Source of the DNA: Solirubrobacterales bacterium
GTDB lineage: Bacteria; Actinomycetota; Thermoleophilia; Solirubrobacterales; 70-9
Assembly: GCA_035558995.1 (NCBI GenBank)
Contig: DATMBY010000298.1
Coordinates: 1-52,198 of the forward strand
Direction of reading: 5' to 3'
DNA: 52,198 nucleotides
Position 1 is the stretch's first letter, and the number at the start of each line of letters is the position of its first letter. This document shows positions 2,537-19,710 of this stretch, piece by piece. The notes beneath the pieces are model-generated. The model did not search any database, was not told where the DNA came from, and worked only from the letters and a program-made list of their open reading frames with translations. Both the position numbers and the translations under genes were made by a program.

Positions 2537-3847
2537 CTATGGTCGGCTGAGTTGGGAGCGGACGAAAAGGGAAACGGCGAGGGAGACGGCCAGCGCGATT
2601 AGGACCAGGAACGCTCGAGCTTCTCCGGAAGCGGAGAAGAGGCCGATGATCGTCGCCAGGGTAGTCAGGACTACAAGTCCGGAGCCGTAGACCTGGAGGT
2701 TTGCCAGCGCTTCGGCTTGCGCATCTTCGGCGCGGCGATGTTGTTGGGCGCTGTAGGTGGCCAGATCGCCCTCGAGGTCGTCGAAGAGGCGCTCGGTCCC
2801 CAGTTCGTCGCGAAGTCTCGAGAGAAGCTCCTGCGGCACCTCGGTACTGGTCGAAAGCTGCGACCACCAGACTGAATTCCGAAACGAGAGCCAGTCTCGG
2901 TGAAGGTCCTCGATTTCGGGCTTGAGGGGATCGCCGACCTCGGCGAGGCGATGCTGGAAATCCTCGAGACACTCCTGTTGCAGGAGGCCGAAGACGAGAC
3001 TCTCGGACCAGTAGGAACGGAGGTTGCGGGCGTAGGCGCCGTCGATGGGTCCGTCCACCGTGAAGGCGGTGCAGTTGCCGAGGACCAGTCCGGTTGCTCC
3101 CGCGTAGTGGACGGTCTGCCGGTCCTCCTTCTCCTGGTACTGCTTGCTCCACGCCCTCACCTTGGCTGAGCCGCGGCGTTTGGCGAGCGCTCGCCGCCAC
3201 GTCTGTTCATCGACGGAACAGCCACCGGGTGGCGGATACTCGGCCATCAGCACCGTGTAGAGGCTCTGCTCGAGATGGCGATGTGGGTCGCCGAACATCT
3301 CCTCGACCAAGGCGCGAACGGGGCGGGACGGGTCCAGGTCCTTGCCCCCGAGCGTCATCCGCAGCGGTTCCTTCCCGCGACGAAGCCCCGTCCGCAGCGC
3401 CCATCCCCACCAGAGTGCGTCCGGCGACGCCTCGCCGTCTGCGGCGGGTTCCAGCGACAGATGGATGAGACCGAAGGTACAGCCTGGCTTCAGGGGGGTA
3501 GTTACCCGCTCCAGCAGGTCGATGCGAGCGCGCCGCGATCTCCCGTCTCGTCGGTAGTGATCGAGGTGGAGCTCGTCGGGGCAGCAGAGCAAACGAGCCC
3601 CACGTTTGTTGCCAACGGGGAAGAGCAACTGGCTGACGTGAGCGCTGAAGTACGGCCATTCGTCTTCCCCCGGGAAGCGCTTGAAGGGGGGCACGCTCGT
3701 CGGGCTGGTGGGGGCGGCCTCACTGAGCCCGTCCGGTTCGGCGCCGACCGCTCGATCCCAAGGGTGCCAGCAAAGGTCGCCTTCGACAGGATGAGCCGAC
3801 TCGAGTCGGACGATCAGGACGGCCAATGCGTCGCAGCTGATGCCCAC
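2537..3847 (-). CDS. Hypothetical protein, 436 aa: soluble N-terminal region, coiled-coil-like segment, two C-terminal TM helices
   Basis: Long ORF with ordinary amino-acid composition. C-terminus is GSGLVVLTTLATIIGLFSA-SGEARA-FLVLIALAVSLAVSLFV. I recognise no family motif. Visibly less GC-rich than the core genes. Confidence 0.7.
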   Translation of the reverse strand: MGISCDALAVLIVRLESAHPVEGDLCWHPWDRAVGAEPDGLSEAAPTSPTSVPPFKRFPGEDEWPYFSAHVSQLLFPVGNKRGARLLCCPDELHLDHYRRDGRSRRARIDLLERVTTPLKPGCTFGLIHLSLEPAADGEASPDALWWGWALRTGLRRGKEPLRMTLGGKDLDPSRPVRALVEEMFGDPHRHLEQSLYTVLMAEYPPPGGCSVDEQTWRRALAKRRGSAKVRAWSKQYQEKEDRQTVHYAGATGLVLGNCTAFTVDGPIDGAYARNLRSYWSESLVFGLLQQECLEDFQHRLAEVGDPLKPEIEDLHRDWLSFRNSVWWSQLSTSTEVPQELLSRLRDELGTERLFDDLEGDLATYSAQQHRRAEDAQAEALANLQVYGSGLVVLTTLATIIGLFSASGEARAFLVLIALAVSLAVSLFVRSQLSRP

Positions 3848-3909: not shown

Positions 3910-3954
3910 CGATGCCGGAGGAGGGACTCGAACCCCCGACACGCGGATTATGAT
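3910..3954 (-). repeat. att site (displaced 3' fragment of tRNA(CAT)), distal end of the element
   Basis: cgatgccggaggagggactcgaacccccgacacgcggattatgat is identical to 19711-19755. The sequences diverge immediately after (cgaggg vs tccgct). Confidence 0.9.
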
Positions 3955-4040
3955 CGAGGGCGATTGTTAAGGATTTCGCTCTGATAAGCGGAATCCCGTC
4001 CGGTTAGTGCAGTCCAGTTGGGCCTGTTTTTGCCTAGTCG

Positions 4041-4060
4041 GGGACACATCTCGGGACACA
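4041..4060 (+). promoter_or_regulatory. Two direct GGGACACA repeats (candidate arm-type integrase/Xis binding sites)
   Basis: gggacacatctcgggacaca, ~90 bp inside the att repeat and upstream of int. The same motif pair occurs at 19646-19666 near the other att site. Confidence 0.4.
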
Positions 4061-4094
4061 TTTTCAGTCCGAAGGAGGGCGCTACCCTCGGTTC

Positions 4095-5375
4095 ATGGCG
4101 TCGTCCTCGATCCATTTCCGCGAAGCACCGGTTAGCGGCCATGTCTTCCGCAAGGCCCGCAAGTCGGGCGACCGCTGGATGGCGAAGTGGCGAGATGGCG
4201 AGGGTCAGCATCAGGTCGTCCTCGGCCGAGTCTGGACGAAGCGGGGAAGACCCCCGGAGGGCTCCCTGACGAAGCAGGGCGCGCAGCGCGAGCTGGACGC
4301 GATCCTCGCCGACGCCAGGCGGAGCAACCTGACGAGCCGCCCCCGCCGCTCCAGCACGGTCACGTTCGGCGAGGCCGCACGAGAGTGGCTGCGCTACGTC
4401 GAGCACGACCGCAAGCGCCGCGCCTCGACCGTCAACGACTACCGCTGGATCGTGGAGCGGCGACTGCTGCCGGAGTTCGGATCGGCGACCTTGGAGTCGA
4501 TCACGACCCAGCGGATCGACGCATGGCGGTCAGGACTCGTCGCTGCTGGCGGCCTTGAAGATGGAGAAGCCCTGTCGGCGCGGACCATCAACAAGTACCT
4601 CGGTGTGATGCACAGCATCTTGAAACGCGCCCAGCGCGTCTACGGGCTCGCCGCCAACGCGGCGGCCTGGGCCGAGCGCCAGCCGGTCACTCGCTCCGGT
4701 GACTTCAACGTCCTATCGGCGCTGGAGGTCGAGGCGCTGGCGCGTGCTGCCCGTGAGGGGCGGCACCGCAAACCGCCGAAGCACGCCACTGGGGCCAATT
4801 GGCGAGCGAAGTTGCGCGAGCAAGATGAGCAGGACGCCGCGATCTTCCTCACCGCCGCCTACGCCGGTCTTCGGCTCGGCGAGCTCCGCAGTCTGCGCTG
4901 GCGCGATCTCGATTTCGGGAAGCGCTTGATCCACGTCCGGCACTCCTACGTGATGCGGACGGAGGACGTGCCGAAGTCCGGTCGCGTGCGCAGCGTCCCG
5001 ATGATCGACCAGGTCGCCGTGGCGCTCGACCAGCTGAGCCGTCGACCGGCGTGGACGGGCGACGATGATCTCGTCTTCGTCAACCCTGCCGGCGAGCACA
5101 TCGAGGACAGCGCTCTCCGCCGCCGCTTCTACGCCGCCCTAAAAGCTGCGGACCTCAAGCACCTTCGCTTCCACGACCTCCGCCACAGCTTCGGCACCCT
5201 CGCCGTCCAGGTCTTCCCGCTGACCGACGTGAAGGCGTACATGGGCCACGCCGACATCGCGACGACGATGATTTACGTCCATCACGTCCCGCGAGTGGAT
5301 GCCGCCGAAAAACTGTCGAGTGCCCTGCGGGCTTCAACTGCTCCGGCGCCCTCGGGTGAGCTAATAGCGGCATAG
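4095..5375 (+). CDS. int: Tyrosine recombinase / phage-type integrase
   Basis: C-terminal catalytic signature: LRLGELRSLRWRDLD (Arg), HDLRHSFGTLAV (HxxR), MGHADIATTMIYVH (Tyr). Sits next to the att repeat. Confidence 0.9.
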   Translation: MASSSIHFREAPVSGHVFRKARKSGDRWMAKWRDGEGQHQVVLGRVWTKRGRPPEGSLTKQGAQRELDAILADARRSNLTSRPRRSSTVTFGEAAREWLRYVEHDRKRRASTVNDYRWIVERRLLPEFGSATLESITTQRIDAWRSGLVAAGGLEDGEALSARTINKYLGVMHSILKRAQRVYGLAANAAAWAERQPVTRSGDFNVLSALEVEALARAAREGRHRKPPKHATGANWRAKLREQDEQDAAIFLTAAYAGLRLGELRSLRWRDLDFGKRLIHVRHSYVMRTEDVPKSGRVRSVPMIDQVAVALDQLSRRPAWTGDDDLVFVNPAGEHIEDSALRRRFYAALKAADLKHLRFHDLRHSFGTLAVQVFPLTDVKAYMGHADIATTMIYVHHVPRVDAAEKLSSALRASTAPAPSGELIAA

Positions 5376-5573
5376 TTAGGCGGCAAGGAAGCTTCCGATG
5401 TCCCCGCATTGCCTTGACTCCGTCCGAGGTGGCGGGCCGCCATCGAGAGACTGAACGGACTTCAGGCTGCTCTTTCCGAGCTTCGCAGACGGCTGCGCTG
5501 TCCGCGACGAATGGAATCTTCTTTAGATGCCTAAGGGAGCGGAAAGACTCGACCGGTCCATTAAGTTGAGGAT

Positions 5574-6545
5574 ATGCCGGGTCGAGAGCTAAAGCAGCTA
5601 TTCAAGGCTTACAGGGAGGGCGATGAGCTCGCCTTTCGCCGTGCTGCGCAGGAAATCATCGAGGACGAGGAGTCCAAGCAGCACATGGCCTTGGCGCGGG
5701 ACCTGCGAAAAATCATCGCGGGTGGCTCTGGTGCTGCAGTGGCAGAGGGGGTGGCTTTACCGGCGCCGCCGATGGACCGAGAGGGAGACTGGCCGCTTGC
5801 GGAGATTCGACACCCCGAGCAGGCCCTTTCCGAGCTGGTGCTTCCTGGGCCCCTACTTGAGCGGCTCCATGGTCTCGCAGCCGAGTTTGCCCGTTGGGAC
5901 GATCTGGATCGGCACTTCATCCCTCGTCGTCAACGTCTGCTGTTTTACGGACCGCCAGGGTGCGGGAAGACGACCGCTGCGGAGGCGATTGCCGCTGAGC
6001 TGGGGCTACCCCTGTTGATAATTCGCCTCGACGCTGTCGTTTCTTCCTACCTTGGCGAGACTGCGTCGAACCTCCATCGGGTTTTTGACTATGCCCGCTC
6101 GGGCTCCTGGGTTCTTCTATTTGACGAGTTTGATGCCCTGGGGAAGGCCCGCGATGATCCCTCTGAGCACGGTGAGATCAAGCGAGTCATTACGGCGTTT
6201 CTTCAGATGCTCGACGGGTTCCGAGGATCGAGCCTTTTGATCGCCGCCACTAACCACGAGCAACTTCTGGATTCGGCATTGTGGCGACGCTTTGACGAGG
6301 TCCTTACTTTCCCTCGCCCCACCGTCCACCAGCTGCGAAAAGTTCTGCGATTGCGACTGCGAGGAACCCAGCATCGAGGTCTAGATATTGAGGCGGCAGC
6401 GAGTGAGTTGAAGGGCCTGCCATATGCGGCCGCCGAGAAGGCGGTCTGGGACGCTCGCCGCAGCGCCTTGTTGTCCGGCCGCTCTGTCGTCGAAGATCGA
6501 GACATCAGCCGCGCCATCGCTGACATCAAGACCCGTCCCTGGTAG
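5574..6545 (+). CDS. ietA: AAA+ ATPase (IetA-like partner of the downstream S8 protease)
   Basis: Walker A GPPGCGKT (5949-5972), Walker B VLLFDEFDALG, LIAATNHEQLLDSALWRRFD. Lies 14 nt upstream of the subtilase gene on the same strand. Confidence 0.75.
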   Translation: MPGRELKQLFKAYREGDELAFRRAAQEIIEDEESKQHMALARDLRKIIAGGSGAAVAEGVALPAPPMDREGDWPLAEIRHPEQALSELVLPGPLLERLHGLAAEFARWDDLDRHFIPRRQRLLFYGPPGCGKTTAAEAIAAELGLPLLIIRLDAVVSSYLGETASNLHRVFDYARSGSWVLLFDEFDALGKARDDPSEHGEIKRVITAFLQMLDGFRGSSLLIAATNHEQLLDSALWRRFDEVLTFPRPTVHQLRKVLRLRLRGTQHRGLDIEAAASELKGLPYAAAEKAVWDARRSALLSGRSVVEDRDISRAIADIKTRPW

Positions 6546-6559
6546 GGGTAGGCAAACCG

Positions 6560-8902
6560 ATGGCCGAACACCTTCCCCTTCCTCCGCGCATTCCTCTGAG
6601 TAGTCGACGACAGCCGGCTCCAGGCGGAGGACCCCGTGCTCCAGAACGCAACCCTCGCCGTCACGGCCAACGACTAGCCCGACAGGTGATGGAGGCCACC
6701 GCATTCTCCTCCGAACTTAGAGTGGTCGAGGGTGTAGATCCTGGGCTGGTCTACAAGATCCGAGCAGCCCACGGGGTCGACGAAGAGAAGTTCACCAGCC
6801 GCGACTTAACCTTCCTTGGCGAGACTGGCGATTTCACCTACTTCGTTTACTCGGGAGAAGAGCCCGACAAATTGATGTCCCAGTTGCGCCGGTATGGCAG
6901 GGGGCCGGATGAAATGGGCGGGAAGGGAGACGGCCGGACGTTCTTCAACGTCTTGGAAGGGATCGAGCCATACGGTCCCGAGGACAGGAAAGGACGCGGG
7001 ATTCCCGAGGATCTGGGGGACCTCGAGGAGCCGGCGGTTGTCGATGTAGTCGCTTGGCCTTCTCATGACAGGACCGAGGCTGAACGCCGGCTTCAGCTGA
7101 TTCGCGCCGTTGTCGAGAGGCTGGGCGGGGAGGAGTTGGCTTCAGATACCCGACGGCAATTCACGGTTCTCCGCGGTCGGCTTCCCCGCAAGACCATCGA
7201 GGGATTGCTTGCGCTGTCGGCGGTAGAAAAACTCAACACGCCTCCGGTTCCTTTCCTGGAGCCCTCCGATTGGATGCAGCGCAGCCTTGATGACCTTGCA
7301 TTTGAGGGCGATGCCGACGGGGAGGCGATCGGTGTTCTCGACGATGGAGTTGCTTCCGGGCACCCGCTGCTCGACGGCCTCGTTGCAAGTGAGCGCTCGT
7401 TTCCCGAGGAACACGAGTGGCAGCCAATTGGTGCCCACGGAACTCTCGTTGCCGGCCTAGCAGCCTACGGCGATTTCGAGGTCCCGCTACGTGATGGACA
7501 TCTTCTAGAGGGTCGGGGGCCGATCCACTGCGCCCGCGTGCTAGAGCCCGATCCAGGTCCTACCACTGCTACGCGGTTTCCTCCTGGCTCCCTCGTTCAC
7601 CGGGTTATTGAAGAAGCGATCCGCACTCTTCATGACGAGGAGGGGGTCCGGGTATTCAACCTCTCCATCGGCTCGGAATATGCCTATTCAGGACCCCATG
7701 TCGCCCTTCCAACCGAGTCTCTCGACTTTCTGATTCGCGAGCTTGGAATCGTGGTGGTCGTCGCAGCTGGCAATCACCCTGTTCATCCAGCCGTCATGAG
7801 CATGGACAGCGGCGGCCACGTCCTCACCGACTACCCCAGCTATACCCTCCACGAGCTTGCCCGGGTTTGCGAGCCTGGTCCAGCGGCCCTCGCTCTAACC
7901 GTGGGCAGCATTGCTCGGTCCGATGCGCCTCAAACGCCAGATGGAACGGCAAGAGTCGGCGACCGTGCCGTCGCAAAAGCGGAAGAGATTTCCCCTTTTT
8001 CACGAACCGGACCCGGCGCGTACAAGGGAGTAAAGCCCGATCTCGTGGAGTACGGCGGCAACTGGGTGGTCAATGACACCGGCAATCTTGATTACGCCAA
8101 CTCAGGCGTCGCCAGCGTCTCGCTGGGGGACGGAGGGGGTCGCCTCTTTGGTCTGGCGGCTGGAACGAGCTTTGCCGCCCCTCGGGTGAGCCGTCTTGCC
8201 GCCGACATCTGGGGCCGATACCCGGATGCGTCGCCAAACCTTGTCCGGGCGCTAATCGGAATTGCCTCGCGGGTTCCACGGGCAGTCGAGGTGCAGTTTC
8301 CAGGGGACGAGGAGCGATTGAGGGCCGTGGGATACGGCCGACCTGTTCCCGAGTTGGCCTTGGACAGCGGCGTGAATCGAGTGGTCATGTACTTCGACGG
8401 TGAGATGGATGCCAATACCGTGGCTGTCCATCCGGTGCCCATTCCGGACTCCTTCGCTCGTGGGCGCTCACAACGTCGAATTTCGGTAGCGCTGGCGTTT
8501 GATCCCCCGGTGCGGCGTCAGCGGCGGGAGTACTTGGCCGGCGAGATGAGTTTTGACTTCCTGCGAAATGTCGAGCCTGACGAGATTGCGGCTCGCTATG
8601 CGCGGCAGGGAGCAGACCGAGTCGACCTTTGGACCGACCGTCACCGCTTGAAGTTGAAGCCGGGCTCCACTCGAACTGCAAGGAGCACGCTGCAAGTGCG
8701 CCGAATCTTCCCGCGCGAACTTCGCGTGGACGATGGTGACACCTACTACCTCGCGGTCAAGCACAAGCCTGCGCCTTGGTCCTCCGGCGGCACGCAGCGA
8801 TACGCGGTTGTCGTTGAGATCGTTGACGAGGAGCGACAGCAGCTGGACATCTACGCGGAGGCGAAACAGCAAATCCAGGTCCGGCCGAGACTGCGGGTCT
8901 AG
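6560..8902 (+). CDS. ietS: S8 (subtilisin-like) serine peptidase, 780 aa (IetS-like)
   Basis: Subtilase triad in canonical order: GVLDDG (D261, 7340-7342), HGTLVAG (H293, 7436-7438), AAGN, GTSFAAP (S537, 8168-8170). No signal peptide is evident, so it is likely cytoplasmic. Confidence 0.8.
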   Translation: MAEHLPLPPRIPLSSRRQPAPGGGPRAPERNPRRHGQRLARQVMEATAFSSELRVVEGVDPGLVYKIRAAHGVDEEKFTSRDLTFLGETGDFTYFVYSGEEPDKLMSQLRRYGRGPDEMGGKGDGRTFFNVLEGIEPYGPEDRKGRGIPEDLGDLEEPAVVDVVAWPSHDRTEAERRLQLIRAVVERLGGEELASDTRRQFTVLRGRLPRKTIEGLLALSAVEKLNTPPVPFLEPSDWMQRSLDDLAFEGDADGEAIGVLDDGVASGHPLLDGLVASERSFPEEHEWQPIGAHGTLVAGLAAYGDFEVPLRDGHLLEGRGPIHCARVLEPDPGPTTATRFPPGSLVHRVIEEAIRTLHDEEGVRVFNLSIGSEYAYSGPHVALPTESLDFLIRELGIVVVVAAGNHPVHPAVMSMDSGGHVLTDYPSYTLHELARVCEPGPAALALTVGSIARSDAPQTPDGTARVGDRAVAKAEEISPFSRTGPGAYKGVKPDLVEYGGNWVVNDTGNLDYANSGVASVSLGDGGGRLFGLAAGTSFAAPRVSRLAADIWGRYPDASPNLVRALIGIASRVPRAVEVQFPGDEERLRAVGYGRPVPELALDSGVNRVVMYFDGEMDANTVAVHPVPIPDSFARGRSQRRISVALAFDPPVRRQRREYLAGEMSFDFLRNVEPDEIAARYARQGADRVDLWTDRHRLKLKPGSTRTARSTLQVRRIFPRELRVDDGDTYYLAVKHKPAPWSSGGTQRYAVVVEIVDEERQQLDIYAEAKQQIQVRPRLRV

Positions 8903-8905
8903 GCC

Positions 8906-9145
8906 TCAGAGAGCTTGCGAACTCTCTGCCATCGCAGAAAGCTCGCTCACAGACACCTTCAGGGCTCCAGCCACCGCTACGACCGTTTCCCAAGTTGGGT
9001 TTGACTGTCCCCGTTCGATTTTCGATAGGTGCCCCACCGTGATCCCAGCTCCGTGAGCTAGGGCTTCCTGCGTCAGACCACGCTCAAGTCGAAGACTTCG
9101 GATAGCCCGACCGAGGGCGACCCTGGGTTTCTCGTTACGAGGCAT
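8906..9145 (-). CDS. XRE-family helix-turn-helix transcriptional regulator
   Basis: LGRAIRSLRLERGLTQEALAHGAGITVGHLSKIERGQSNPTWETVVAVAGAL is a classic Cro/C1 HTH. Confidence 0.85.
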   Translation of the reverse strand: MPRNEKPRVALGRAIRSLRLERGLTQEALAHGAGITVGHLSKIERGQSNPTWETVVAVAGALKVSVSELSAMAESSQAL

Positions 9146-9188
9146 TACAGGACATTCTCAAAGACAGGTGGCTTGGACCATATTTCCG

Positions 9189-9200
9189 AGCACTTGTGCT
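9189..9200. promoter_or_regulatory. Small inverted repeat AGCAC-TT-GTGCT in the divergent promoter region (candidate operator)
   Basis: Seen between the divergently oriented XRE gene (8906..9145) and the 9296.. operon. Confidence 0.25.
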
Positions 9201-9295
9201 TTAGGATTGGTTCCGCTAGCGTCATGAAGACGAAAACAAGCGCCCCCGCGCTGCGCTAACAGCCGGGGGCATGGCACAAGGAGCGTGAACTCCCT

Positions 9296-9592
9296 ATGCA
9301 AGACAAGCCTAGTGGCGCCGGCCATGAGCGCGCCACGAGCACCGCCGAGGAAGACCACCGCGACCAGGCAGGCGTCCTCAGACACGTTCTCTCGATTTAC
9401 CCCGAGGTCATCACCCGCGAGGAGTTGATCCGCGAGATGACCGGGGGTGATTCCTCCCCTGCCTTCGCGGAGCGCGACCGGATCGAGCGGGCAGTCCGCG
9501 ACCTAATCGCGGGGGGCCTTCTCCACGAGGACGGCAAGCTCGTCTTGCCGACCAGGCCCGCCGTCCTCTGTCACTCCCTCCTCGACGACTGA
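9296..9592 (+). CDS. Hypothetical small protein (possibly winged-helix DNA-binding)
   Basis: 98-aa ORF whose stop overlaps the next start (ATGA at 9592). Contains ITREELIREM...AVRDLIAGGLLHEDGKLVLPT, which is wHTH-like. Confidence 0.55.
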   Translation: MQDKPSGAGHERATSTAEEDHRDQAGVLRHVLSIYPEVITREELIREMTGGDSSPAFAERDRIERAVRDLIAGGLLHEDGKLVLPTRPAVLCHSLLDD

Positions 9593-9879
9593 TGGACGGC
9601 AGGAAGGTGGACAGAGAGGCCGCGCTGCGGCTCGGGAAGAACCTGTGGAGCGCCCGTCGCCGTGCGGGCTACTCCCAGGAAGACCTGGGCGACCTCGCGT
9701 GCCTTCACCGGACCGAGATCGGGTTGCTGGAGACCGGCAAGCGGTTGCCGCGGATCGACACGCTGATGAAGCTCGCCGCCGCCCTGGAAGTCCGGGTGGA
9801 GGAGCTGGTGGAGGGGATCGAGTGGCTGCCGCCCGGTCCCCGACCGAGCGGGACCTTCGCCGTCAGGAGGGCGGCATGA
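9592..9879 (+). CDS. XRE-family helix-turn-helix protein
   Basis: LGKNLWSARRRAGYSQEDLGDLACLHRTEIGLLETGKRLPRIDTLMKLAAAL. Translationally coupled on both sides. Confidence 0.8.
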   Translation: MDGRKVDREAALRLGKNLWSARRRAGYSQEDLGDLACLHRTEIGLLETGKRLPRIDTLMKLAAALEVRVEELVEGIEWLPPGPRPSGTFAVRRAA

Positions 9880-10097
9880 GCCCGAACAAAGCCATGAGTG
9901 TCCGGCTTCCCGACTCGATGAATGCGCAGATCAATGCTCTCGCCCGGATCGAGGGGGTGCATGTCTCGGAGTTGGTCCGAGAGGCGATCGAGGACTACCT
10001 GTCTCGGCGGCGCTCTGAGAAGGATCTGAAAGAGCGCTTGAAGCAGCGGATGGAGGAAGATTGGAAGGTCTTGGAGCACCTCGGGAAAAAGGATTAG
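9876..10097 (+). CDS. Ribbon-helix-helix (CopG/Arc-like) protein
   Basis: Internal ATG of track ORF 9645..10097, overlapping the previous stop (ATGA at 9876-9879). MSPNKAMSVRLPDSMNAQINALARIEGVHVSELVREAIEDYL fits the RHH pattern. Confidence 0.7.
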   Translation: MSPNKAMSVRLPDSMNAQINALARIEGVHVSELVREAIEDYLSRRRSEKDLKERLKQRMEEDWKVLEHLGKKD

Positions 10098-10190
10098 TTC
10101 AAGCACTCCCTAGTCCGAAGAGCAGAAGCAAAAGCCTCGAAATCCAGTGGACCTAGCTTCTCCAAGCTGCGACCCCCAAAGGCAGACGCC

Positions 10191-10224
10191 GACCTCTAGG
10201 GCCTTAATCATCGTCCTAGAGGTC
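10191..10224. repeat. Perfect 10-bp inverted repeat hairpin (GACCTCTAGG-14 nt-CCTAGAGGTC)
   Basis: Read directly from the sequence. It is downstream of the RHH gene and has no T-run, so it is not a classic terminator. Confidence 0.6.
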
Positions 10225-10366
10225 GCTACCTCCCCAACAGCAGAACCCCTCACGCCCTACGGATGAAAGTCAAGTTCTCGCAAGCCCGAGGACTCCAGCT
10301 CCGCCTCCTCACCCAGCTTCTTTTCGAGCCCCGCAGGAGCCCTCCGAACAGCAACTGCAGACCCCC

Positions 10367-11599
10367 TCACGCACTATCATCCCCTCCCCGGAGGGCCTGA
10401 TTACGCCCGCTGCGGCCCGCCGGCTGCCAGTCGGCGACGAGCCGTCGGTAGGCGACCTCCGCCTGGGCCGCAAGCTCCTTCTCGAGTCGCTTCCGCTCCG
10501 TCGCGCTGACCTTCGCCCGCTTGCCGCCACCACCACGGCGCCGCTTCGCCCCGGCGTCCAGCTCGGCCTTGCGGATCTTCTGCGCCACCAGCGTCGGGCG
10601 GGCGAAGGCGTAGTCCTCGCCGCGGGTGAGCATGTGCCAAGCGACCGTCACCAGCTTGCGAGCCACGGCGACGGTGGCGACGTTCTGGCCCCGGCGACCC
10701 GCGACCCGCTCGCCGAAGGCCTTCATCGGCCCGGTGGAGCGGCGCGCATGCAGGGCGGCCTCGACGAGGACGTGGCGCCCGTAGCCGGGGCCGCGCTTGG
10801 AGATCCGCCCGTGGCGGGCGGGCTCAGAGCCCGACTGCGCCACCTTGGGGTCGAGCCCCAGGTAGCCGACCAGGTGGCGCGGGCTCGGGAAGCGCGAGAT
10901 GTCGCCGATCGCCGCCATCAGCGCCGTCGCCGCCACCGCCCCGAACCCCGGCAGGCTCATCAGCCGACGGATCTCCGCCGAGCCCACCACCTGCTCGGCG
11001 ATGCGGCGGTCGATCAGCTCGATCTCGGCATTGAGGAAGTCGACCTGGCGCAGGCAGGCGTCGACCGTCTCGGCCTCGTCGGTGGGCAGCGGCTGGGTGG
11101 CAAGCCAGCTTCGGCCGTTGACCCCGAACAAGTCGCTCATCGGCGCCTTGCCGCGCAGGTTGCGGACCAGCACCGCGTGGACCTGGTTCTTCTCGCGGGT
11201 GCGCTGGCGCACCAGCTGGTAGCGGCGGCTGATCAGCCGCCGCCTCACCCGCGTTGCCTCGTCGGGCATCCAGACCGCGGTGAGGAAGCCGCCGGCGCCG
11301 AGCTGGGCCAGCGCCCTGGCGTCGAGGCGGTCGGTCTTGGGGCCGTTGCCGAGGCGCTCGCGGACCTTCCTGGGGTCGGCCAGCACCACCCGGGCCACGT
11401 GGGGCTCGATCGCCGCGGCGATCGCCCGGGCGTTGCCGCTCATCTCCATCGCCACCTGATCGTCTTCGCCGAGGCTCCCGGCGAAGAGCTCCAGGTCCTC
11501 CTCGGTGCTCTTGACCCGGCCGGCGCTTCTGACCTCGCCGGCCTCCCAGATAGCCACCTCGCAGAAGTCGCGGTGGACGTCCATCCCGATGAATCGCAT
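10367..11599 (-). CDS. IS110-family transposase/recombinase
   Basis: MRFIGMDVHRDFCEV (D), AMEMSGN (E), KTDRLDARALA (D..D), and C-terminal domain LPGFGAVAATALMAAIGD...GLDPKVAQSGS. Start moved to Met19 of track ORF 10367..11653. Confidence 0.9.
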   Translation of the reverse strand: MRFIGMDVHRDFCEVAIWEAGEVRSAGRVKSTEEDLELFAGSLGEDDQVAMEMSGNARAIAAAIEPHVARVVLADPRKVRERLGNGPKTDRLDARALAQLGAGGFLTAVWMPDEATRVRRRLISRRYQLVRQRTREKNQVHAVLVRNLRGKAPMSDLFGVNGRSWLATQPLPTDEAETVDACLRQVDFLNAEIELIDRRIAEQVVGSAEIRRLMSLPGFGAVAATALMAAIGDISRFPSPRHLVGYLGLDPKVAQSGSEPARHGRISKRGPGYGRHVLVEAALHARRSTGPMKAFGERVAGRRGQNVATVAVARKLVTVAWHMLTRGEDYAFARPTLVAQKIRKAELDAGAKRRRGGGGKRAKVSATERKRLEKELAAQAEVAYRRLVADWQPAGRSGRNQALRGGDDSA

Positions 11600-11860
11600 C
11601 GCCTGCTCCTCTCGCTCGGATTGGGCGGAAGGGGCGGCGGGCAAGAACGGCAACTACGGATTCGGGCTCTCGGCCCATCCGGGCATTCGCAGGGGCGGCC
11701 AGCTATCAACTGCGGGCTCTCGGCCCATAAGGCGTGCGGCCTGCCCGGCCTGCGCTCTTCCACAGAGCCCCCGGCCCGGAGCATCGGCGAGGACGCTAGG
11801 CGCCGCCGCGGACGGTCCCGGAAGAGGCTCCAGGGGCAGTTTCATGCCCCTATCACTGCG
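11600..11860 (-). ncRNA. Candidate IS110 bridge (seeker) RNA region in the transposase 5' leader
   Basis: Non-coding leader of the length and position where IS110-group elements encode their guide RNA. Contains two identical 16-nt hairpin units, cgggctctcggcccat, at 11663-11678 and 11713-11728, exactly 50 nt apart. A GGGGCA/TGCCCC hairpin lies at ~11835-11852. Not verified by a covariance model. Confidence 0.35.
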
Positions 11861-12399
11861 TGATTTTCGTTCCCGGCGGCGCCCGCGATGGGCTTCGAGC
11901 TTTGCGAGGAAATCGAGCCAACGACTCCCAATGAGCGGGCCTCGCTCGACCACATAGATGACGACGGCAATCGCTAAAGCGGCTGCCGGACCGAGGACAG
12001 AGAGCGACATTGAAAGCATCAGCGTCGCCCTCTTCGAGGGTATGCATACCGGGCTCAGCTCGTCAAGACCCCCAAATTTGCCGGACTACTCCCGGCCCCG
12101 GTCTAGAGCCAAATCCTGAAGGCCGAAGAGGAGGGGGTTCGTCATTGGGTGTTAGTGCCAGAGGACCTTCGGCATCGCGCCCGGGTCATCAATCTGCCGC
12201 TTGCGTGGGGAACGGCGGGGCATCGTCGCCCTCCGGGGCATTTCCCCGGCGTGGATCAACGCCCCTCAGCCGAGAGCAGCGCGTCCAGCGGCACCGTGCA
12301 GATCGCCCCCTGCGGTGGCACTCATGACATGGAGCCGATGCACGAGCCCGCCGCGCCGGACATCGGAGGCATGGACTGCCTCACGGGAGATCACCGCTG

Positions 12400-15300
12400 A
12401 TGCTCTCCATCGGCAAGATGGGCGGCGGCCAGGAGCGCTACTACCTGGGCAAGGTCGCCGAAGGTGCCGAGGACTACTACTCCGGGGAGGGGGAGGCCGA
12501 GGGCTACTGGCTAGGCGATGCCGCCGAGGATCTCGGCCTCCAGGGCAAGGTCGATTCCGACCAGCTGATCGGGATGCTGACCGGCTCCAACCCGGCTACC
12601 GGGGAGCCGCTCGGCCTGCGTCACGTCCAGGGCGGCCCGGTCCCCGGCTTCGATCTCACCTTCTCGGCGCCGAAGTCGGTCTCCCTGACCTGGGCGCTCG
12701 GCGGCCATCCAGTCGCCGCCGAGGTCAAAGCCGCCCACGTCGAAGCGGTCAAGGCGGGTCTCGACTATCTCCAGAGTGAGGCTTGCTTCACCCGGCGCGG
12801 CGCGGGTGGTCACGCGTTCCTCAAGGGCAACGGCTTCCTCGCCGCCGGCTACACCCACCGCTCCTCCCGCGCCGGCGATCCGCAGTTGCATACCCATGTC
12901 CTCGTCGCCAACGCCACCTTTGCCGACGGCCGCTGGACCCGCCTCTACCACCCGGCGATCTATGAGCACGCGAAAACTGCCTCCTACATCTACGAGGCCC
13001 ACCTTCGCGATGAGCTGACCCACCGTCTCGGAGTCCGCTGGAGCGAGGTGAAGAACGGCCTCGCTGAGATCGAGGGCTACGATCCCGATCATCTCCGCGC
13101 CTTCTCGACCCGTCGCCAGCAGATCCTCGAGGCGGCGGGGGAGGGGGCCTCGGCTCGCGCTCGGCAGATCGCGACCCTGGAGACCCGGGCGGCCAAGGAC
13201 ACCGACCTGAGCACGGAGAGCCTGCGGGATCTCTGGCGCGAGAAGGCCGAGGAGATCGGCCTCACCCGCGAGTCGATCCGCGCCGCCCTCGGCCACGAGC
13301 GCCAGGCGCCGGAGGGGCGGGTCTCCGTCGCCGAGGTGGAAGCGGCCCTCACCGCGCATCGCTCCCACTTCGACCGCCGCGAGGCGATCCAGGCAGTTGC
13401 CGACTGCCTCCCGGCCGGGGCACCGGGGGAGGAGGTCACGGAGCTTGCCGACGCCTACCTCACCCGGCCGAAGGTGATCCCGATCGCGGCCACCGCCAAA
13501 GGCGAGCGCTACACCACCCGCGCGATCTGGGAGATGGAGCGCACGGCGCTTGAGAGGCTCGAGGCGATGGCCGCCACCGAGGACCGCGCCGCAGTCTCGG
13601 AACTAGTGACCGCCCGCGTCCTCGCCAAGCGGCCGTCGATGAAGCCCGATCAGCGGGTGATGGTCGAGCGGCTCCTCACCGGCGGCGGGGGCGTGGCCGT
13701 GGTGGTCGGCGAGGCCGGAACCGGCAAGACCTACGCGCTGACCGCCGCCGCCCACGGCTGGGCGCACGACCGCACCGAGCTACGGGTCGCGGCGCCGACG
13801 TGGCGGGCGGCCAACGTCCTTCGTTCGGAGGGTCTTAGCGCCACTAGCGTCGCCAGTCTCCTCGCCGAGCTTGACCGCGGCACCGCGGCGGGGCAGCAAG
13901 TGCTCGCCCGCGGATCGGTCCTGGTGGTCGACGAGGCCGGAATGGTCGATTCCCGCGCGCTGGCGCGGCTTGTCCAGCACGCCCACGAGGCCGAGGCGAA
14001 GCTCGTCCTGATCGGCGATCCGGCGCAGCTGGGGGAGATCGAGGCGGGCGGCCTCTTCGCCTCGATCGCGGCGAGGACGGAGCCGATCGTCCTCGATGAA
14101 GTGATCCGCCACCACCACGACCTGGAGCGCGAGGCGGCGAAGATGGTCCGCGAGGGCGAAGGGCGGCAGGCGATCTCTGTCTACCAGGGCGCCGAGCGCG
14201 TCACGGTCTCTGACGACCCGCTGGCGCGGCGCGAGGCGATGATCGCCGACTGGTGGCAGAGCTTCCAGCGCGGCGAGGACGCGCTGATGATCGCAAAGAC
14301 CAACCGCGAGGTCGCGGCGCTGAACGCGCTGGCGCGGGAGCAGATGAAGGCGGCGGGCCAGTTGGGGGCGGACGAGATCGAGGTCGGCGAAGCTCGCTTC
14401 GCTGCCGGCGATCAGGTCATCACCCGGATCAACGACCAGCGCCAGAACATCTACAACCGCGAGCGCTGGCGCGTGGCGGAGGTTGACCGGGAGTCCGGGA
14501 CCGTGGAGTTAGTCGGAATCGACACCCGGGGGCGGGTGTGTGTCGATTCCGACTACTTGGGGCGGGTCAGGGAGAGGGATGGAGGGCCTGCGCTGGAACA
14601 CGCCTACGCGGCGACCACCTACCAGGCCCAGGGGGCGACGGTGGACACCGCTTTCGTCATGGCCGATCCCTCGATGGACCGCCAGGAGTTCTACGTCGCC
14701 ACCTCCCGCAGTCGCGAGGGCACCTACCTCTACGCCACCCCCGAGGTCAACTTCGACCGCGACGAGTACGCGCCGCGCTCACAGATGCGAGAGGGCCTCG
14801 ACCACATCGCCGAGGCGGCCGAGCGCGACGGCGCCCAGGTCTCCGCGCACGACGCGGTGCTGCGGGCCGAGCTCGACGGGCTCCCACCGGCCGATCTCGC
14901 TCGCCGGGTCCGCGAGATCCACGCCGAGGCCGGCGCCGAGCGCCACAACGAAGCCCGCCATCTCAGAGCCGAGAAGGAGATCGAGCGTCACAGCGAGCAC
15001 CTCGAGCACTACCGCTCGGCCACTCACTCTGTGCATCCCTCTAATGAAGAACGCGCGCGGGAGCAGATCGCGGCGGCGAGGGCAGAGCGCGAGCAGCTGC
15101 CCGAGATCGGCCATGAGGCCCGCGCGAAGGCGGCGGTGGCGGAAAGCGTTCTCGCAGAACGCGAACGCGCCGCCGCGACCGCCGCCCGTCTGTCGCCTCC
15201 CGACTACATCACCAGGGAGCTTGGCGAGCGCCCAAACGATCCGACGAAGGCCCGCGAGTGGGACAAGGCGGTGCAAGGGGTCGAGGGCTACCGGGTCAGA

Positions 15301-15471
15301 AACGGCGTGGGGGACAGAGACAACGCTCTCGGGCCGAAGCCCCACGACCACTCCCAGACGCACGAGCACGCACGGGCCGAACGGCAGCTACAGCAGGCCC
15401 AGCGGCGCTTGCAGCTTCAGCGAAGCCAGCAACGTGCCGCTGAGCAGGCCATCCACTTGGGGATCGGATGA
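12400..15471 (+). CDS. MobF-family conjugative relaxase fused to TraA/RecD-like helicase (TrwC/TraI type)
   Basis: N-terminus MLSIGKMGGGQERYYLGKVAEGAEDYYSGEGEAEGYWLG (catalytic Tyr pairs), HRSSRAGDPQLHTHVLVAN (His triad), helicase Walker A GEAGTGKTY, VLVVDEAGMV. Confidence 0.9.
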   Translation: MLSIGKMGGGQERYYLGKVAEGAEDYYSGEGEAEGYWLGDAAEDLGLQGKVDSDQLIGMLTGSNPATGEPLGLRHVQGGPVPGFDLTFSAPKSVSLTWALGGHPVAAEVKAAHVEAVKAGLDYLQSEACFTRRGAGGHAFLKGNGFLAAGYTHRSSRAGDPQLHTHVLVANATFADGRWTRLYHPAIYEHAKTASYIYEAHLRDELTHRLGVRWSEVKNGLAEIEGYDPDHLRAFSTRRQQILEAAGEGASARARQIATLETRAAKDTDLSTESLRDLWREKAEEIGLTRESIRAALGHERQAPEGRVSVAEVEAALTAHRSHFDRREAIQAVADCLPAGAPGEEVTELADAYLTRPKVIPIAATAKGERYTTRAIWEMERTALERLEAMAATEDRAAVSELVTARVLAKRPSMKPDQRVMVERLLTGGGGVAVVVGEAGTGKTYALTAAAHGWAHDRTELRVAAPTWRAANVLRSEGLSATSVASLLAELDRGTAAGQQVLARGSVLVVDEAGMVDSRALARLVQHAHEAEAKLVLIGDPAQLGEIEAGGLFASIAARTEPIVLDEVIRHHHDLEREAAKMVREGEGRQAISVYQGAERVTVSDDPLARREAMIADWWQSFQRGEDALMIAKTNREVAALNALAREQMKAAGQLGADEIEVGEARFAAGDQVITRINDQRQNIYNRERWRVAEVDRESGTVELVGIDTRGRVCVDSDYLGRVRERDGGPALEHAYAATTYQAQGATVDTAFVMADPSMDRQEFYVATSRSREGTYLYATPEVNFDRDEYAPRSQMREGLDHIAEAAERDGAQVSAHDAVLRAELDGLPPADLARRVREIHAEAGAERHNEARHLRAEKEIERHSEHLEHYRSATHSVHPSNEERAREQIAAARAEREQLPEIGHEARAKAAVAESVLAERERAAATAARLSPPDYITRELGERPNDPTKAREWDKAVQGVEGYRVRNGVGDRDNALGPKPHDHSQTHEHARAERQLQQAQRRLQLQRSQQRAAEQAIHLGIG

Positions 15472-15683
15472 TGAGCCGGTCGGTCGAAGACCCCCAGGCC
15501 ATCGGTTCGCTTGAAGAGCCGCTACTCAACGCCGATGAAGCTGCGCAGCTACTTCACGTTCCCCGGAGCACGCTCTATGAGTTGGTCCGATCCCGGCATC
15601 TGCCGCATGTGCGCGTGGGTCGGGCGCTTCGCTTCACCCGGCACGATCTCGCCGATTGGGTGAGGGCCAATACGTTCCGCTAG
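15468..15683 (+). CDS. Excisionase-type / MerR-like helix-turn-helix DNA-binding protein
   Basis: LLNADEAAQLLHVPRSTLYELVRSRHLPHVRVGRALRFTRHDLADWV is the typical Xis/AlpA HTH_17 pattern. Its start overlaps the relaxase stop. Confidence 0.75.
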   Translation: MMSRSVEDPQAIGSLEEPLLNADEAAQLLHVPRSTLYELVRSRHLPHVRVGRALRFTRHDLADWVRANTFR

Positions 15684-15817
15684 AGGCTGTATCCACTCAA
15701 GTCGCCGGCAGGCTCCCTTAATGCGGCAAGGGAGAGGCTGAGCGATCCGGCCGCAGCGACGCCTGAGATCACGATGTGTCCGAGCTCGAGGGCTATCGCC
15801 AGCCTCACCATCGAGGA

Positions 15818-18800
15818 CTATTTGTTGAGTCCATCGTCTTTGAGCAACTTGGCGAGCTTGCTGGCGAAATCTCCGCCCACCACATGACAGCTTTCGCAGC
15901 CAGTGTTGGTTGCGGGGTTTGCCTGTTCACACCGCATACACGTCCAAGGACGAGGATCGCGATCCGCGCCTAGGAGCGTCGTTCGCACGTCTTGCGGTAG
16001 GGGTGCTTCCAACGACTCAACCATGGTGGTCCGTACTTCATCGTCAGGGTCGGCAAGCACCTCGGGAAGCAAGGTCGGCGGTTCTCCGCTCTGGACCCCA
16101 GCCGCTATCCGCCAGGCAGCGGCGTTGCGTAGCCAGATGTCGTCGTCGTTGAGCCATTCTGTGACGCGCTCGGTGTTCTCGACGGAAAGAACAAGACGTG
16201 CTGCCTCGAAGCGGCTCATTCGTCGCAATCGCGGAAGCAGCTCAACGATCTCCTCGATGTCAGGTTCCTCCATGCCGCTGTTGGCCAGGGCTTGGATGGC
16301 CCGCCATGAGAACCAACTCCCTAGTGAAAGGGCGCGGTGCAGCAAGCGTCTCGTTGCATGACGGTCCTCGACCCGATCCCAGGCATCAAAGGTGAGCAAC
16401 GCGCCCTTCATGTTCAGCATCGACTCAAGCTCCTCCCGATCCTCGGGATGACGGTCTCCTTCTTTGAGCACGTAGGCCGCCTCGGATGCGATCAGTGCGA
16501 GGTCCACGCCGCTTAGGCGGGCCAGAATCAGCATGCACTCGCGCAAAGTCTTGGGTGCCGCTTGGAGGGTGTTAGAAGGGGCATAAGCCGGGGCGTCGGG
16601 AAGGCCAAGGGTCGACCAGAGGTTCACGAGCTCATCAAGGCGTCGTCGTTGGCCTGCTCGGAGGTCAATCGGGTCTGCCGCCGTGGTGAGCCAGCGCAGG
16701 AATTCACGGTCCGCTTCGTGGCGGAGTTTCAGCTCGCCAACGAATCGGCGTGCACGCGCTATGCCCCCGTAGCGTTCATCTCGACGGCGATCCAGGTCGG
16801 CGACGATCTCCTGATTCGCGAAGCGGCGCAGCAGGATCTCTAGCGCGTCGGCATGTCTCCCGCCCACCTCCTCGACCAGCTGCAGCGCGCGGGTGGCGAG
16901 TGAGGGGTCTTTTGGCAGCAAGCGCTCAAGCGAGTGATGGATCGCACGGCTCCAGATGGGATCCGCGATCGCCAGAGCCAAGACGAAAGCACCACCCGTC
17001 CCCTCCGCTTTCTCGCGCTTCGGTGGGTCGGTATCGATTACGTCGCGGATCGCTCTCTTCTCGGCCGCGCTCGGATGGTCGGCTTTGAGCGCGAGTAGGG
17101 CTTCGAAGCTCGGCCTCTGATCAGCGGGAAGCCGAGAAAGCGACCGGCGCGTCTTGTCACGAAGCTCTTTAGGTAGATCGAGTTTCAGCAGCGCCTCGGC
17201 TGCAGCGCGCCGCTCGTTTTGGTCTTCGGATTTCAGTACCTCGATCAAGGCGCTGGCCAACAAGTTGCGCTTGCTCGCACCTTGCCCGGATGCACCAGCA
17301 GTGACGTCGTTGGCCCGCAGGACCAAGTCCGGCACACGGCTTGCATCCGCTATGTCAACTGCCTCGCGGGCGAGGCGTTGAGAGAGCTGACACGCGAGGC
17401 GCAGGGTCTCAACTAGGTCGGGATCTCCAAGAGCTGTTTCGACCCACTCTGACCCTTCGGCGTCCGTGAGTTTCGAGGCTCGCCAAGCCTCACCTACCTC
17501 GACAAAGAGGCGCAAGCGGGGGAATAGTCGTCCGTCTGATCCGCAGACGAAAAAGCCAGCCTGATCCCAGAAGGCGATCACATCATCTGCGCAAACGTCA
17601 GCGCTCGGTGCGGTGAGTTGGAATCCCTCGCGGAGCGCGTTCGCGACAGCGTGCCGGCATTCATCAATGACAGGTAGCTCTTGCTCGGTAAGCATGCGGG
17701 AAAGAGCGAGAAAGCCCTCGATTAGCGCTCGGCGGGCGAGTCCTTCTTGGAGGGGTCCGACCTGGGCTCGCTCACCGATCGCCTCCCACTGCACGATCAC
17801 CGATTCCAAGATCTCGACCATGACCGTTGCGCGATTGCCGGGCAGAGTTTCCTCGTCCCCAACGGCAGCCCGCATCGCGAGCAACACGGCAAGTAGAGGC
17901 GTTTCGGCCAGCGCGTCGTCGCGGTCCAGCCATTCCTTGACCCAACTGATCCGAGCTTTGACCCACTCATCTCCATCGGCAGGCGAATATCTGGACGCGA
18001 GTTCTTCAAGCACGGCTCGCGCGGTATCCAGCGACTCGCGAGGAGCCAATAACCGCAACTCAAAGAATCCGAGGCTTGCGGCATCTGCATAAGCGAGATC
18101 GCGAGTCGCGATGACGATCTCGGCGTCCGGATCGAGCTCGGAGAAAAGGTCCTTTAGCTGACGGAGGACCTCATGGCGGCCCTCGCGCGCCTCATCAAGG
18201 GCATCGAGGACAAGGACAATTCCAGGCCCGTTTAGAGCGTCATCAAGCTGAGACGCCAGAACTTTCCGGTCCATTCCTGAAGCCGAGGACGTGGCGAGTT
18301 CGACAAGGGCCTTTCTAACCCCGTGTTCCCCGAGGCGTTTGCTGAGCATGTCGAGACGGACGATGATCGGAAGCGGCCAGCCTGGTCGCTTTGCGTATTC
18401 AGAAGCGACTGCGCGAAGCGCGGTGCTCTTTCCGGAGCCGGGAAGGCCCGTGAGAAGGACTCGGCCGCGTCGGCGGAGCGCCCAAGTGAGCGGGTCGCCA
18501 TAACGCTCCTCTTCGAACGTGCCCGGTCCCCCAGGGCTTACCTCCACCTCGGCGTCGGCTCGCTCAAGCGTCAACGGCGGGATCGTTGCGGCAAGGCCCG
18601 CGAAGTCGAGCGTTTCGCCGCGACGCTGGACCCGCTCTAGGTAACGAGCCATTGCGCCCCTGCTGGCTCCGGTTGAACCCGGTTCATCCTCGCGGAGGGG
18701 CAGCTCGGTGCCCCGTAGGGCGTCGCAAAGTTGCTGGCGATCAAACCCATACCGGAGGCGAGCGCCCTTGCCGCAGACGTTCAGAAGTCGCTCCCAAGCC

Positions 18801-19420: not shown

Positions 19421-19645
19421 CGAGGCAACCCAGATTTCTGCCGCGAGGAGTAGGACGGCGCGTGCGCCCGAAGGGCGCTGCTGGCTCCATTGCCCAATTG
19501 AAAGAAGCCGCCGTTAGCGGCCGCTATGACGCGCTGAGTTGATGAGATAACGGCGCAGAGGGTATTCGGGACGTCCCGTGTCGTCTGACGTGCTGCCGGC
19601 GGTGGGCGCCACGAACCCAGGCAGGCCGAATTGATTGTGAATTTC

Positions 19646-19666
19646 GGGACACACTTGGGACACATT
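19646..19666 (+). promoter_or_regulatory. Two direct GGGACACA repeats (candidate arm-type sites) near the tRNA-proximal att site
   Basis: gggacacacttgggacacatt, ~45-65 bp inside the att repeat. Same motif and orientation as 4041-4060. Confidence 0.4.
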
Positions 19667-19710
19667 CGGCTTTTTCAGCGGTCCTAAACCGAGGAAGCCA
19701 AGGTGCCAAG

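Follow-up and report, generated by a model that had tools for sequence, protein, structure and literature searches.

A 52,198-nucleotide stretch of the Solirubrobacterales contig DATMBY010000298.1 (hereafter the window, meaning this whole stretch) was found to carry two adjacent genes, ietA and ietS, which encode an AAA+ ATPase and a subtilase of the S8 family, respectively. The pair is very probably a functional IetA/IetS (IetAS) module of the Y4kK type, carried as cargo of a 15.8-kb element in a tRNA-Met gene. Although divergent, it clearly belongs to the known IetA/IetS family, within a Y4kK-type clade common among Actinomycetota; no new kind of system is involved, and the pair is classified as known IetAS.

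The gene pair and its family

The two genes lie on the forward strand with the ATPase gene first, separated by a spacer of 14 nt, GGGTAGGCAAACCG. Their coordinates, lengths and orientation were exactly those given in an earlier annotation made from the nucleotide letters alone (hereafter the sequence-only reading). The features of the module are as follows:

5574-6545, forward strand: ietA, ATG start, 323 aa; classic-clade AAA+ ATPase, the genetic antitoxin of the IetAS family
6560-8902, forward strand: ietS, ATG start, 780 aa; predicted cytoplasmic S8 subtilase, the genetic toxin/effector of the IetAS family
5490-5573, forward strand: conserved region upstream of ietA, with a candidate promoter and a GAGGA ribosome-binding site

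When the proteins were compared with the PADLOC profiles, both matched Iet models near full length, IetA to PDLC02196 (E 2.6e-88, 295 bits, residues 5-318 of 323) and IetS to PDLC02198 (E 3.6e-92, 308 bits, residues 31-779 of 780). Three more PADLOC IetA models matched IetA (E 4e-76 to 4e-49), and seven more IetS models also matched IetS. The top NCBIfam matches were IteA_antiphage (NF042959, 249 bits) and IteS_antiphage (NF042956, 118.8 bits). Homologues bear the Pfam domains Y4kK_N (PF27160) and Y4kK_2nd (PF27210) in precomputed annotations. Scoring against these profiles thus bore out the identification as IetAS/Gao_Iet proposed in the sequence-only reading. Since the best PADLOC sub-models were PDLC02196 and PDLC02198, the pair falls in a different sub-clade from Gao_Iet. 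In RefSeq, such relatives are named only 'ATP-binding protein' and 'S8 family peptidase'. Searches of the PDB sequences returned no IetA or IetS structure, only generic subtilases (E approximately 1e-8) and p97/Cdc48, and no paper giving an IetAS structure or substrate was found in the literature searched.

The GC content of ietA and ietS was 0.61-0.62 compared to 0.705 for the window outside the island, in agreement with the lower GC noted before. GC at third codon positions (GC3) was 0.65-0.66 in the two genes, approximately 0.95 in neighbouring core genes and 0.83-0.87 in the integrase and relaxase genes of the island. The ietAS region is compositionally foreign.

Nucleotide similarity to an independent ietAS locus of another Solirubrobacterales contig (locus L009) spans positions 5490-8904 of the window, and the limits of the module were set accordingly, because the similarity starts at 5490 and stops at 8904. 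A three-genome alignment upstream of ietA contained the conserved blocks GCGCTGTCCGC and ATGGAATCTTCTT.AGATG, with GAGG immediately before the ATG. Between the integrase gene and ietA, the window is without approximately 190 nt that are present in a sister locus (window 5429-5443 compared to L002 8566-8756). In the sister contigs a 108-aa open reading frame (ORF) is called in this intergenic region (L002 8512-8838), overlapping the extra nucleotides. The number of terminators found at 5300-9700 was not above chance.

Both genes are under strong purifying selection, with dN/dS values of 0.035 for ietA and 0.045 for ietS against the sister genome DATFQO010000058, at dS 0.20-0.24. When one genome per species was scanned, at least 560 relatives of this IetS type were recovered, spread over Actinomycetota, Bacillota, Myxococcota, Planctomycetota, Pseudomonadota and other phyla. 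Among the best 80 of these loci, the 76 with at least 1.1 kb of upstream sequence were scored for pairing; they come from several phyla, and 74 of them have an IetA homologue immediately upstream of ietS in the same orientation. The two genes are an obligate unit, almost always found together. The pairwise identities of IetA and IetS correlated with r = 0.94, which was not taken as physical interaction because any operon inherited as a unit should show it. Among 1.84 billion cluster representatives, searched exhaustively, 423 clusters matched at E<=1e-30, and the family is widespread but sparse.

Domain organisation of IetS and IetA

Pfam placed Peptidase_S8 (PF00082) on residues 254-593 of IetS (E 5.7e-32), which leaves extensions of approximately 253 aa at the N-terminus and 187 aa at the C-terminus. 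The sequence-only reading had given the former as about 250 aa, which held, and the latter as about 230 aa, which was too long by the Pfam boundary. The residues of the active site, D261 (VLDDGV), H293 (GAHGT), the oxyanion N405 (AAGN) and S537 (GTSFAAP), stood where that reading had placed them, as did the ATPase motifs GPPGCGKT and LLFDEFD. In an alignment of 63 homologues (45-80% identity), which also served as the input for an AlphaFold2 model, D261, D262, H293, N405 and S537 were invariant. So were many residues beyond the catalytic domain. The model of full-length IetS (pLDDT 90, pTM 0.84), together with the profile matches, gave the following layout, all on the forward strand:

Residues 1-19 (6560-6616): N-terminal peptide HLPLP..RR, modelled as short beta strands, pLDDT 91 and 78 in the first two 10-residue blocks
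Residues 20-26: Gly-rich loop, of low confidence in the model
Residues 32-51: helix in the AlphaFold2 model
Residues 63-226 (6746-7237): two tandem alpha/beta-plait modules, beta-alpha-beta-beta-alpha-beta; Y4kK_N and Y4kK_2nd in homologues
Residues 63-137: first plait module, beta-alpha-beta-beta-alpha-beta in the models
Residues 159-226: second plait module, beta-alpha-beta-beta-alpha-beta in the models
Residues 254-593 (7319-8338): subtilase catalytic domain, Pfam PF00082; approximately 250-600 in the model
Residues 607-756 (8378-8827): C-terminal beta-sandwich, mostly beta strands in the model, pLDDT >90

The N-terminal peptide follows the conserved pattern H4-L5-x-L7-P8 … R16-R17, then a Gly run and R30-N-P-x-x-H35-G36. 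Across the 63 homologues L7 and R17 were invariant and H4, L5, P8 and R16 were at least 90% conserved. The HLxLP..RR peptide recurs in the IetS of other phyla and of a Sphingobium plasmid, and the IetS of plasmid pTiC58 has the Gly-run/R-D..H part of the motif. When the N-terminal 250 residues were modelled alone, the plait modules were kept and residues 1-30 fell to a pLDDT of approximately 50. The peptide is therefore predicted to be ordered only via packing on the catalytic or C-terminal part. The C-terminal domain carries the motif FDPPVRRQRREY (residues 647-658), in which D648, P649, V651, R652, R653, R655 and Y658 were invariant.

In Foldseek searches with the whole IetS model the best match was Tk-SP (3afg, E 2e-23), and KP-43, subtilisins, kexin, furin and PCSK9 were also found. 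Residues 1-250 gave no match at E<=0.001. Their weak matches (E 0.02-0.05, prob 0.98-0.99, TM 0.51-0.59) were to ribosomal protein S6 and, on a par with it, to fungal and bacterial subtilase propeptide chains (8gkp_J, 8u45_A, 8c4z_A). A Pfam search of the IetS extensions at E<=10, with a set that did not include the Y4kK_N and Y4kK_2nd models, yielded nothing useful and no Inhibitor_I9 match. The models weakly suggest that the plait modules are 'propeptide-like', a designation that is reasonable but unproven, and the propeptide idea remains a lead because no Foldseek match reached E<=0.001.

The conserved IetS N-terminus has a charged, Pro- and Gly-rich sequence. Over the first 70 residues of the protein, the Kyte-Doolittle mean of 10-residue stretches reached at most 1.12, compared to 2.73 for the signal peptide of Bacillus subtilis AprE, and the median of the same maximum over 120 IetS homologues was also 1.12. 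By its sequence IetS is a cytoplasmic protein without a signal peptide, as the earlier reading had stated, and the homologues likewise gave no indication of a secretion signal. A twin-arginine export signal at "SSRRQ" was considered and rejected, as no hydrophobic stretch follows and R16-R17 are part of the family-wide N-terminal motif.

In IetA, Pfam AAA at residues 122-247 is the one AAA module and no further domain was found. The N-terminal region is IetA-specific, and Pfam at E<=10 gave nothing useful there. Walker A lies at residues 126-133 (GPPGCGKT, G126-K132) and Walker B at 181-187 (LLFDEFD, D184/E185). In 30 IetA homologues these motifs, sensor-1 N227, the Arg fingers R238/R239 and the segment S157-S158-Y159-L160-G161-E162-T163 were invariant or nearly so. 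In a profile alignment SSYLGET falls on the pore loop of p97 D2 (TMWFGESE), so that a feature characteristic of substrate-threading AAA+ rings is retained in IetA. By these motifs IetA belongs with the classic-clade substrate-threading AAA+ proteins of the p97/Cdc48 D2, PAN and Vps4 type, and a hexamer with threading activity is predicted.

FtsH has membrane anchors and an M41 peptidase domain, and Cdc48 has an N domain and two AAA modules. Neither the membrane or M41 parts of FtsH nor the N and D1 domains of Cdc48 were found in the 323 residues of IetA. The PAN, FtsH and Cdc48 models scored at most 98 bits against it (FtsH 88 with a cut-off of 600, CDC48 74 with a cut-off of 803) compared to 249 bits for IteA_antiphage, so the ATPase is not of the FtsH/Cdc48 type. 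Clustering with such housekeeping proteins was what the sequence-only reading had named as counting against its identification, and the scores do not show it.

The C-terminus of IetA, R-P-W (residues 321-323, window 6536-6542), is invariant within the clade. An R-[PR]-W ending was present in 49 of the 74 paired IetA loci, and two more had Ala after the Trp. The loci with this ending were mainly from Actinomycetota, together with one Bauldia metagenome-assembled genome; it was absent from most Pseudomonadota (Bauldia aside) and from all loci of Bacillota, Myxococcota and Planctomycetota. The R-P-W tail may be a partner-docking tail.

The tRNA-Met element and related loci

The pair is cargo of an integrative mobilizable element of approximately 15.8 kb in tRNA-Met. 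The features of the element outside the module are:

3910-3954, no strand assigned: left end, distal attachment-site copy; 45-nt repeat of the tRNA-Met 3' end (direct repeat D5), 100% identical to 19711-19755
4095-5375, forward strand: tyrosine-recombinase integrase; Pfam Phage_integrase E 1.1e-29, SAM-like N-domain; ends 199 nt upstream of ietA
8906-9145, reverse strand: Xre-type helix-turn-helix (HTH) gene; PADLOC, NCBIfam and Pfam HTH matches
9296-9592, forward strand: unannotated 98-aa ORF
9592-9879, forward strand: Xre-type HTH gene; PADLOC, NCBIfam and Pfam HTH matches
10367-11653, reverse strand: IS110-family transposase; Pfam Transposase_20, DEDD_Tnp_IS110
12400-15471, forward strand: TrwC-type relaxase fused to a RecD-like helicase; Pfam TrwC E 1.4e-84, AAA_30 E 4.6e-48; mobilization function
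15818-19420, reverse strand: 1200-aa NACHT/STAND NTPase; Pfam NACHT; GC3 0.67; adjoins tRNA-Met
19714-19787 (19711-19787 with the repeat), reverse strand: tRNA-Met(CAT), right end; ARAGORN, Rfam tRNA 67 bits; its 3' part is the proximal attachment site

The island was delimited to approximately 3910-19755 (15.8 kb) because the tRNA 3' end is perfectly repeated at 3910-3954. The 45-nt repeat consists of the 3' 42 nt of the tRNA and 3 nt more, which agrees with the description of the pair in the sequence-only reading as cargo of a tRNA-integrated element. That reading had also set the pair beside the integrase, and the integrase indeed ends close upstream of ietA. It abuts the distal 45-nt copy of the tRNA end, and the tRNA gene itself is 14 kb away from it at the far end of the element. 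An Rfam scan of the island returned only this tRNA-Met(CAT), which is the sole tRNA of the window.

The sequence GGGACACA occurs four times in the window (approximately 0.8 expected), always on the forward strand and as two tandem pairs at 4041-4060 and 19646-19664. Both pairs lie just inside the island ends and none was found elsewhere in the window. These octamers are likely to be arm-type binding sites of the integrase, a putative assignment based on their number and position.

The HTH gene at 8906-9145 is convergent with ietS, its stop lying 4 nt past the ietS stop, and is not called in the sister contigs. The HTH gene at 9592-9879 overlaps the stop of the 98-aa ORF, an arrangement that resembles a small toxin-antitoxin or regulatory pair. 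The whole stretch 8906-9879 is kept in sister island L002. At the other end of the element, the N-terminal 240 residues of the STAND NTPase matched the PADLOC candidate PDC-M54A (E 9e-24) and gave no match among Pfam, NCBIfam or PDB sequences. In GC3 the gene is an outlier, as ietAS is. This gene is probably a second, Avs-like candidate defence gene of the island, as judged from its domain matches. No coupling protein or mating-pair genes were found among the island ORFs scanned.

Outside the left end, the flanking chromosomal gene (2537-3847, reverse strand) encodes 436 aa with weak CorA-like (PADLOC E 1.6e-11) and bestrophin-like (Pfam, below cut-off) matches, and it is adjoined by an SCO4226-like gene at 2080-2502.

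The sister genome (DATFQO010000058) carries the same island at the same site. The left arm, from the integrase through ietAS to the HTH genes, was 91% identical to it at the nucleotide level compared to 82% for the chromosomal flank, and the relaxase arm was 82% identical to the sister island. The element is thus mosaic, the relaxase arm being at 82% and the int-ietAS-HTH arm at 91%. The cargo between the HTH and relaxase genes (window 9880-12330) differs in the sister island (L001-L003), which has three extra genes encoding a 504-aa protein, a tRNA-Thr_ED-domain protein and a 416-aa protein, and its IS110 lies on the opposite strand.

In locus L009 (JBQCHW010000354.1, 6930-10503; Solirubrobacterales), ietAS lies directly beside tRNA-Met and its IetS is 90% identical at the protein level and 82% at the nucleotide level. 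No integrase, relaxase or STAND gene was found at this locus, and upstream of its ietAS are genes for a HicB-like antitoxin, a beta-lactamase-family protein and a RibD_C protein. The module has thus been retained there without the mobile backbone, as neither integrase nor relaxase is present. The tRNA-Met site is a variable hotspot. In Miltoncostaea oceani, the ietAS pair was found within an integrative conjugative element.

Function, rival explanations and known systems

The founding description of the family was of a toxin-antitoxin system that stabilises plasmid pTiC58, the protease being the toxin and the ATPase the antitoxin (Yamamoto et al. 2009, by the accounts in PMC13069673 and PMC8562856), an origin on which the sequence-only reading was silent. 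In mycoplasma, the ATPase gene can be deleted only together with the protease gene, and the protease is the toxin (PMC8562856). Anti-phage activity of IetAS is attributed to Gao 2020 as cited in PMC13069673, and protease activity is needed for defence (PMC13069673). For the Bacillus cereus ietAS, abortive infection is the reported mode of action, with expression of yosG of phage SPbeta as the trigger (bioRxiv 10.1101/2022.08.27.505566). The sequence-only reading had held both trigger and substrate to be unknown. This no longer applies to the trigger, for which yosG is reported; the substrate and the mechanism were still given as unknown in April 2026 (PMC13069673).

From these precedents a mechanism can be proposed in which IetA would assemble as a hexameric substrate-threading AAA+ ring, its pore loop being intact, and would spend ATP to hold IetS inactive. 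IetS would probably be held by its conserved N-terminal peptide and Gly-rich loop, or else by its two propeptide-like modules. The restraint would be broken by a phage product, or when the element is lost and with it the supply of fresh IetA, and the freed IetS would cleave essential cytoplasmic proteins and stop growth. One circuit would in this way account for phage defence as well as for stabilisation of the element, by analogy with the relatives.

In a more specific version, IetS would be a cytoplasmic zymogen whose N-terminal peptide and plait modules close the active site. The YLG pore of the IetA hexamer would at all times grip or thread the N-terminal handle, and a phage protein that blocks IetA or competes for it would free a self-activating protease. 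The IetA of Actinomycetota might dock via its invariant R-P-W, as proteasomal ATPases do via their HbYX tails. This version is speculative and we regard it as doubtful; if true, it would be an ATPase-gated protease switch whose logic is the reverse of that in the Clp, Lon and proteasome machines.

Several observations weigh against the assignment of the pair as a functional module with this mode of action. Both proteins missed the NCBIfam equivalog cut-offs (510 bits for IteA and 900 bits for IteS); since these were not reached, the pair lies outside the narrow NCBI equivalog and represents a divergent clade, not the E. coli-type pair. A sigma-70 consensus scan of 5300-9700 gave no promoter-like site, so that the ietA promoter is a candidate only. 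The likeness of the plait modules to propeptides is weak, as their Foldseek E values of 0.02-0.05 and the missing Inhibitor_I9 match indicate. The step in which the ATPase neutralises the protease has been explained for no family member (PMC13069673), and toxicity, antitoxin action and phage defence are extrapolated to this pair from relatives at 25-36% identity.

The principal rival explanation is that addiction and not phage defence is the main job of the pair, so that post-segregational killing would keep the island as IetAS does for pTiC58. It would agree with the discovery of the family as a plasmid-stability toxin-antitoxin system, as presented in PMC13069673 and PMC8562856. It would also agree with the occurrence of relatives on 440 of 72,556 plasmids (314 of the 440 conjugative) compared to just 4 of 50,697 phage records. 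Moreover, the pair sits amid integrase, relaxase or conjugation genes here, in M. oceani and on the Sphingobium plasmid. However, relatives defend measurably via abortive infection (bioRxiv 10.1101/2022.08.27.505566; Gao 2020 as reported in PMC13069673), locus L009 keeps the module by tRNA-Met without integrase or relaxase, and a second defence-like gene, the STAND NTPase, is on the same island. We consider addiction as the main job a real possibility, and one that we lean against; the addiction and defence roles are compatible and not mutually exclusive. The pair might instead be a decaying, non-functional defence remnant on an old island, given that an IS110 has inserted in the island and that the cargo varies between sister islands. 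With both reading frames intact, all catalytic residues kept, the low dN/dS against the sister genome (0.035-0.045 at dS 0.20-0.24) and perfect attachment-site repeats, this is very improbable.

A housekeeping role was also weighed, in which IetA would be an unfoldase that delivers substrates to its partner protease, as in PAN-proteasome or FtsH, and the pair would have no part in conflict. The IetA core is indeed nearest to Cdc48/p97 D2, PAN and FtsH and keeps the threading pore loop, but the pair is on a horizontally acquired island (GC3 0.65 compared to 0.95 in core genes), its distribution is patchy (the 423 clusters found at E<=1e-30 in the search of 1.84 billion representatives), and the IetA profiles scored 295 and 249 bits compared to at most 98 for the housekeeping models. 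In relatives the protease is the toxin and cells do not survive losing only the ATPase (PMC8562856), the opposite of what a cooperative degradation machine would give. Such a role is thus highly unlikely. That IetS is an ordinary secreted subtilase lying by chance beside an unrelated AAA+ gene is suggested by the resemblance of its S8 and C-terminal beta domains to secreted Tk-SP and KP-43. This explanation is effectively refuted by the absence of a hydrophobic N-terminal segment from IetS, and at the median of 120 homologues, by the AAA+ gene directly upstream in 74 of 76 related loci and by the Iet profile matches of both genes.

The assignment to IetAS gives a clean call of a defence/addiction module, where RefSeq-style pipelines would write no more than "AAA family ATPase" and "S8 family peptidase"; a run of PADLOC or DefenseFinder would pick the system up automatically. 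It also provides an island with both ends defined, in a lineage that has received little study and in which the nearest genomes are Solirubrobacterales metagenome-assembled genomes. For the question of how an ATPase restrains the protease, the N-terminal peptide, the plait modules and the Arg-rich C-terminal motif of IetS, and the pore loop and R-P-W tail of IetA, are targets for mutation.

Among the known systems, the pTiC58 pair is likewise on mobile DNA, with the ATPase gene upstream and a gap of a few nt. Its IetA (328 aa compared to 323 here) is 36% identical to the IetA described here over the full length (E 8e-57) and lacks the C-terminal R-P-W. Its IetS (836 aa compared to 780 here) is 25% identical over residues 251-667, which take in the catalytic domain and the beginning of the C-terminal part (E 8e-15), and the N-terminal 250 residues were not aligned by BLASTP. 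The pTiC58 host replicon is a proteobacterial plasmid, whereas the present pair is on an actinobacterial chromosomal island. Gao_Iet/ietAS (Gao et al. 2020; B. cereus homologue) has the same two-protein architecture and profile family, and by analogy the present pair is expected to work like it, by protease-dependent abortive infection.

The closest annotated relatives are Y4kK/Y4kL-type pairs of alphaproteobacterial plasmids, represented by the plasmid of Sphingobium sp. YC-XJ3 (NZ_CP117472). Its IetS is 32% identical over 95% of the length and its IetA is 42% identical. It shares with the present IetS the N-terminal HL.L..RR..GGGG..R-D-P..H peptide and the C-terminal YDPPVR..RR.Y motif. The Sphingobium pair differs from the present one in its plasmid location and in an IetA that does not end in R-P-W. 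At the Sphingobium locus (L006 6298-9374) a relaxase gene precedes the pair and a hypothetical gene and then a TIR-domain gene follow it, forming another small mobile defence cluster.

The ietHAS system (Liu-DS4; PMC13069673) has the same IetA and IetS core plus an SNF2 helicase. This variant was rejected for the present locus, where the neighbours are the upstream integrase and a downstream HTH gene with no adjoining helicase gene. The Mycoplasma TA132/133 pair (PMC8562856), likened here by its description only, has the same architecture with a 353-aa ATPase and a 757-aa S8 protein; it is chromosomal and tied to horizontally transferred regions, in a distant host. In structure, the whole IetS model was best matched (E 2e-23 to 1e-12) by Tk-SP (3afg), KP-43 (1wmd), kexin, furin and PCSK9, which share its modelled layout of alpha/beta-plait module(s), catalytic domain and beta-sandwich. 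In contrast to IetS, which is predicted to be cytoplasmic, these pro-subtilases are secreted and activate themselves by propeptide cleavage. IetS differs from them further in its two plait modules, its extra N-terminal peptide, its lack of a Pfam I9 match and its predicted control by a separate ATPase.

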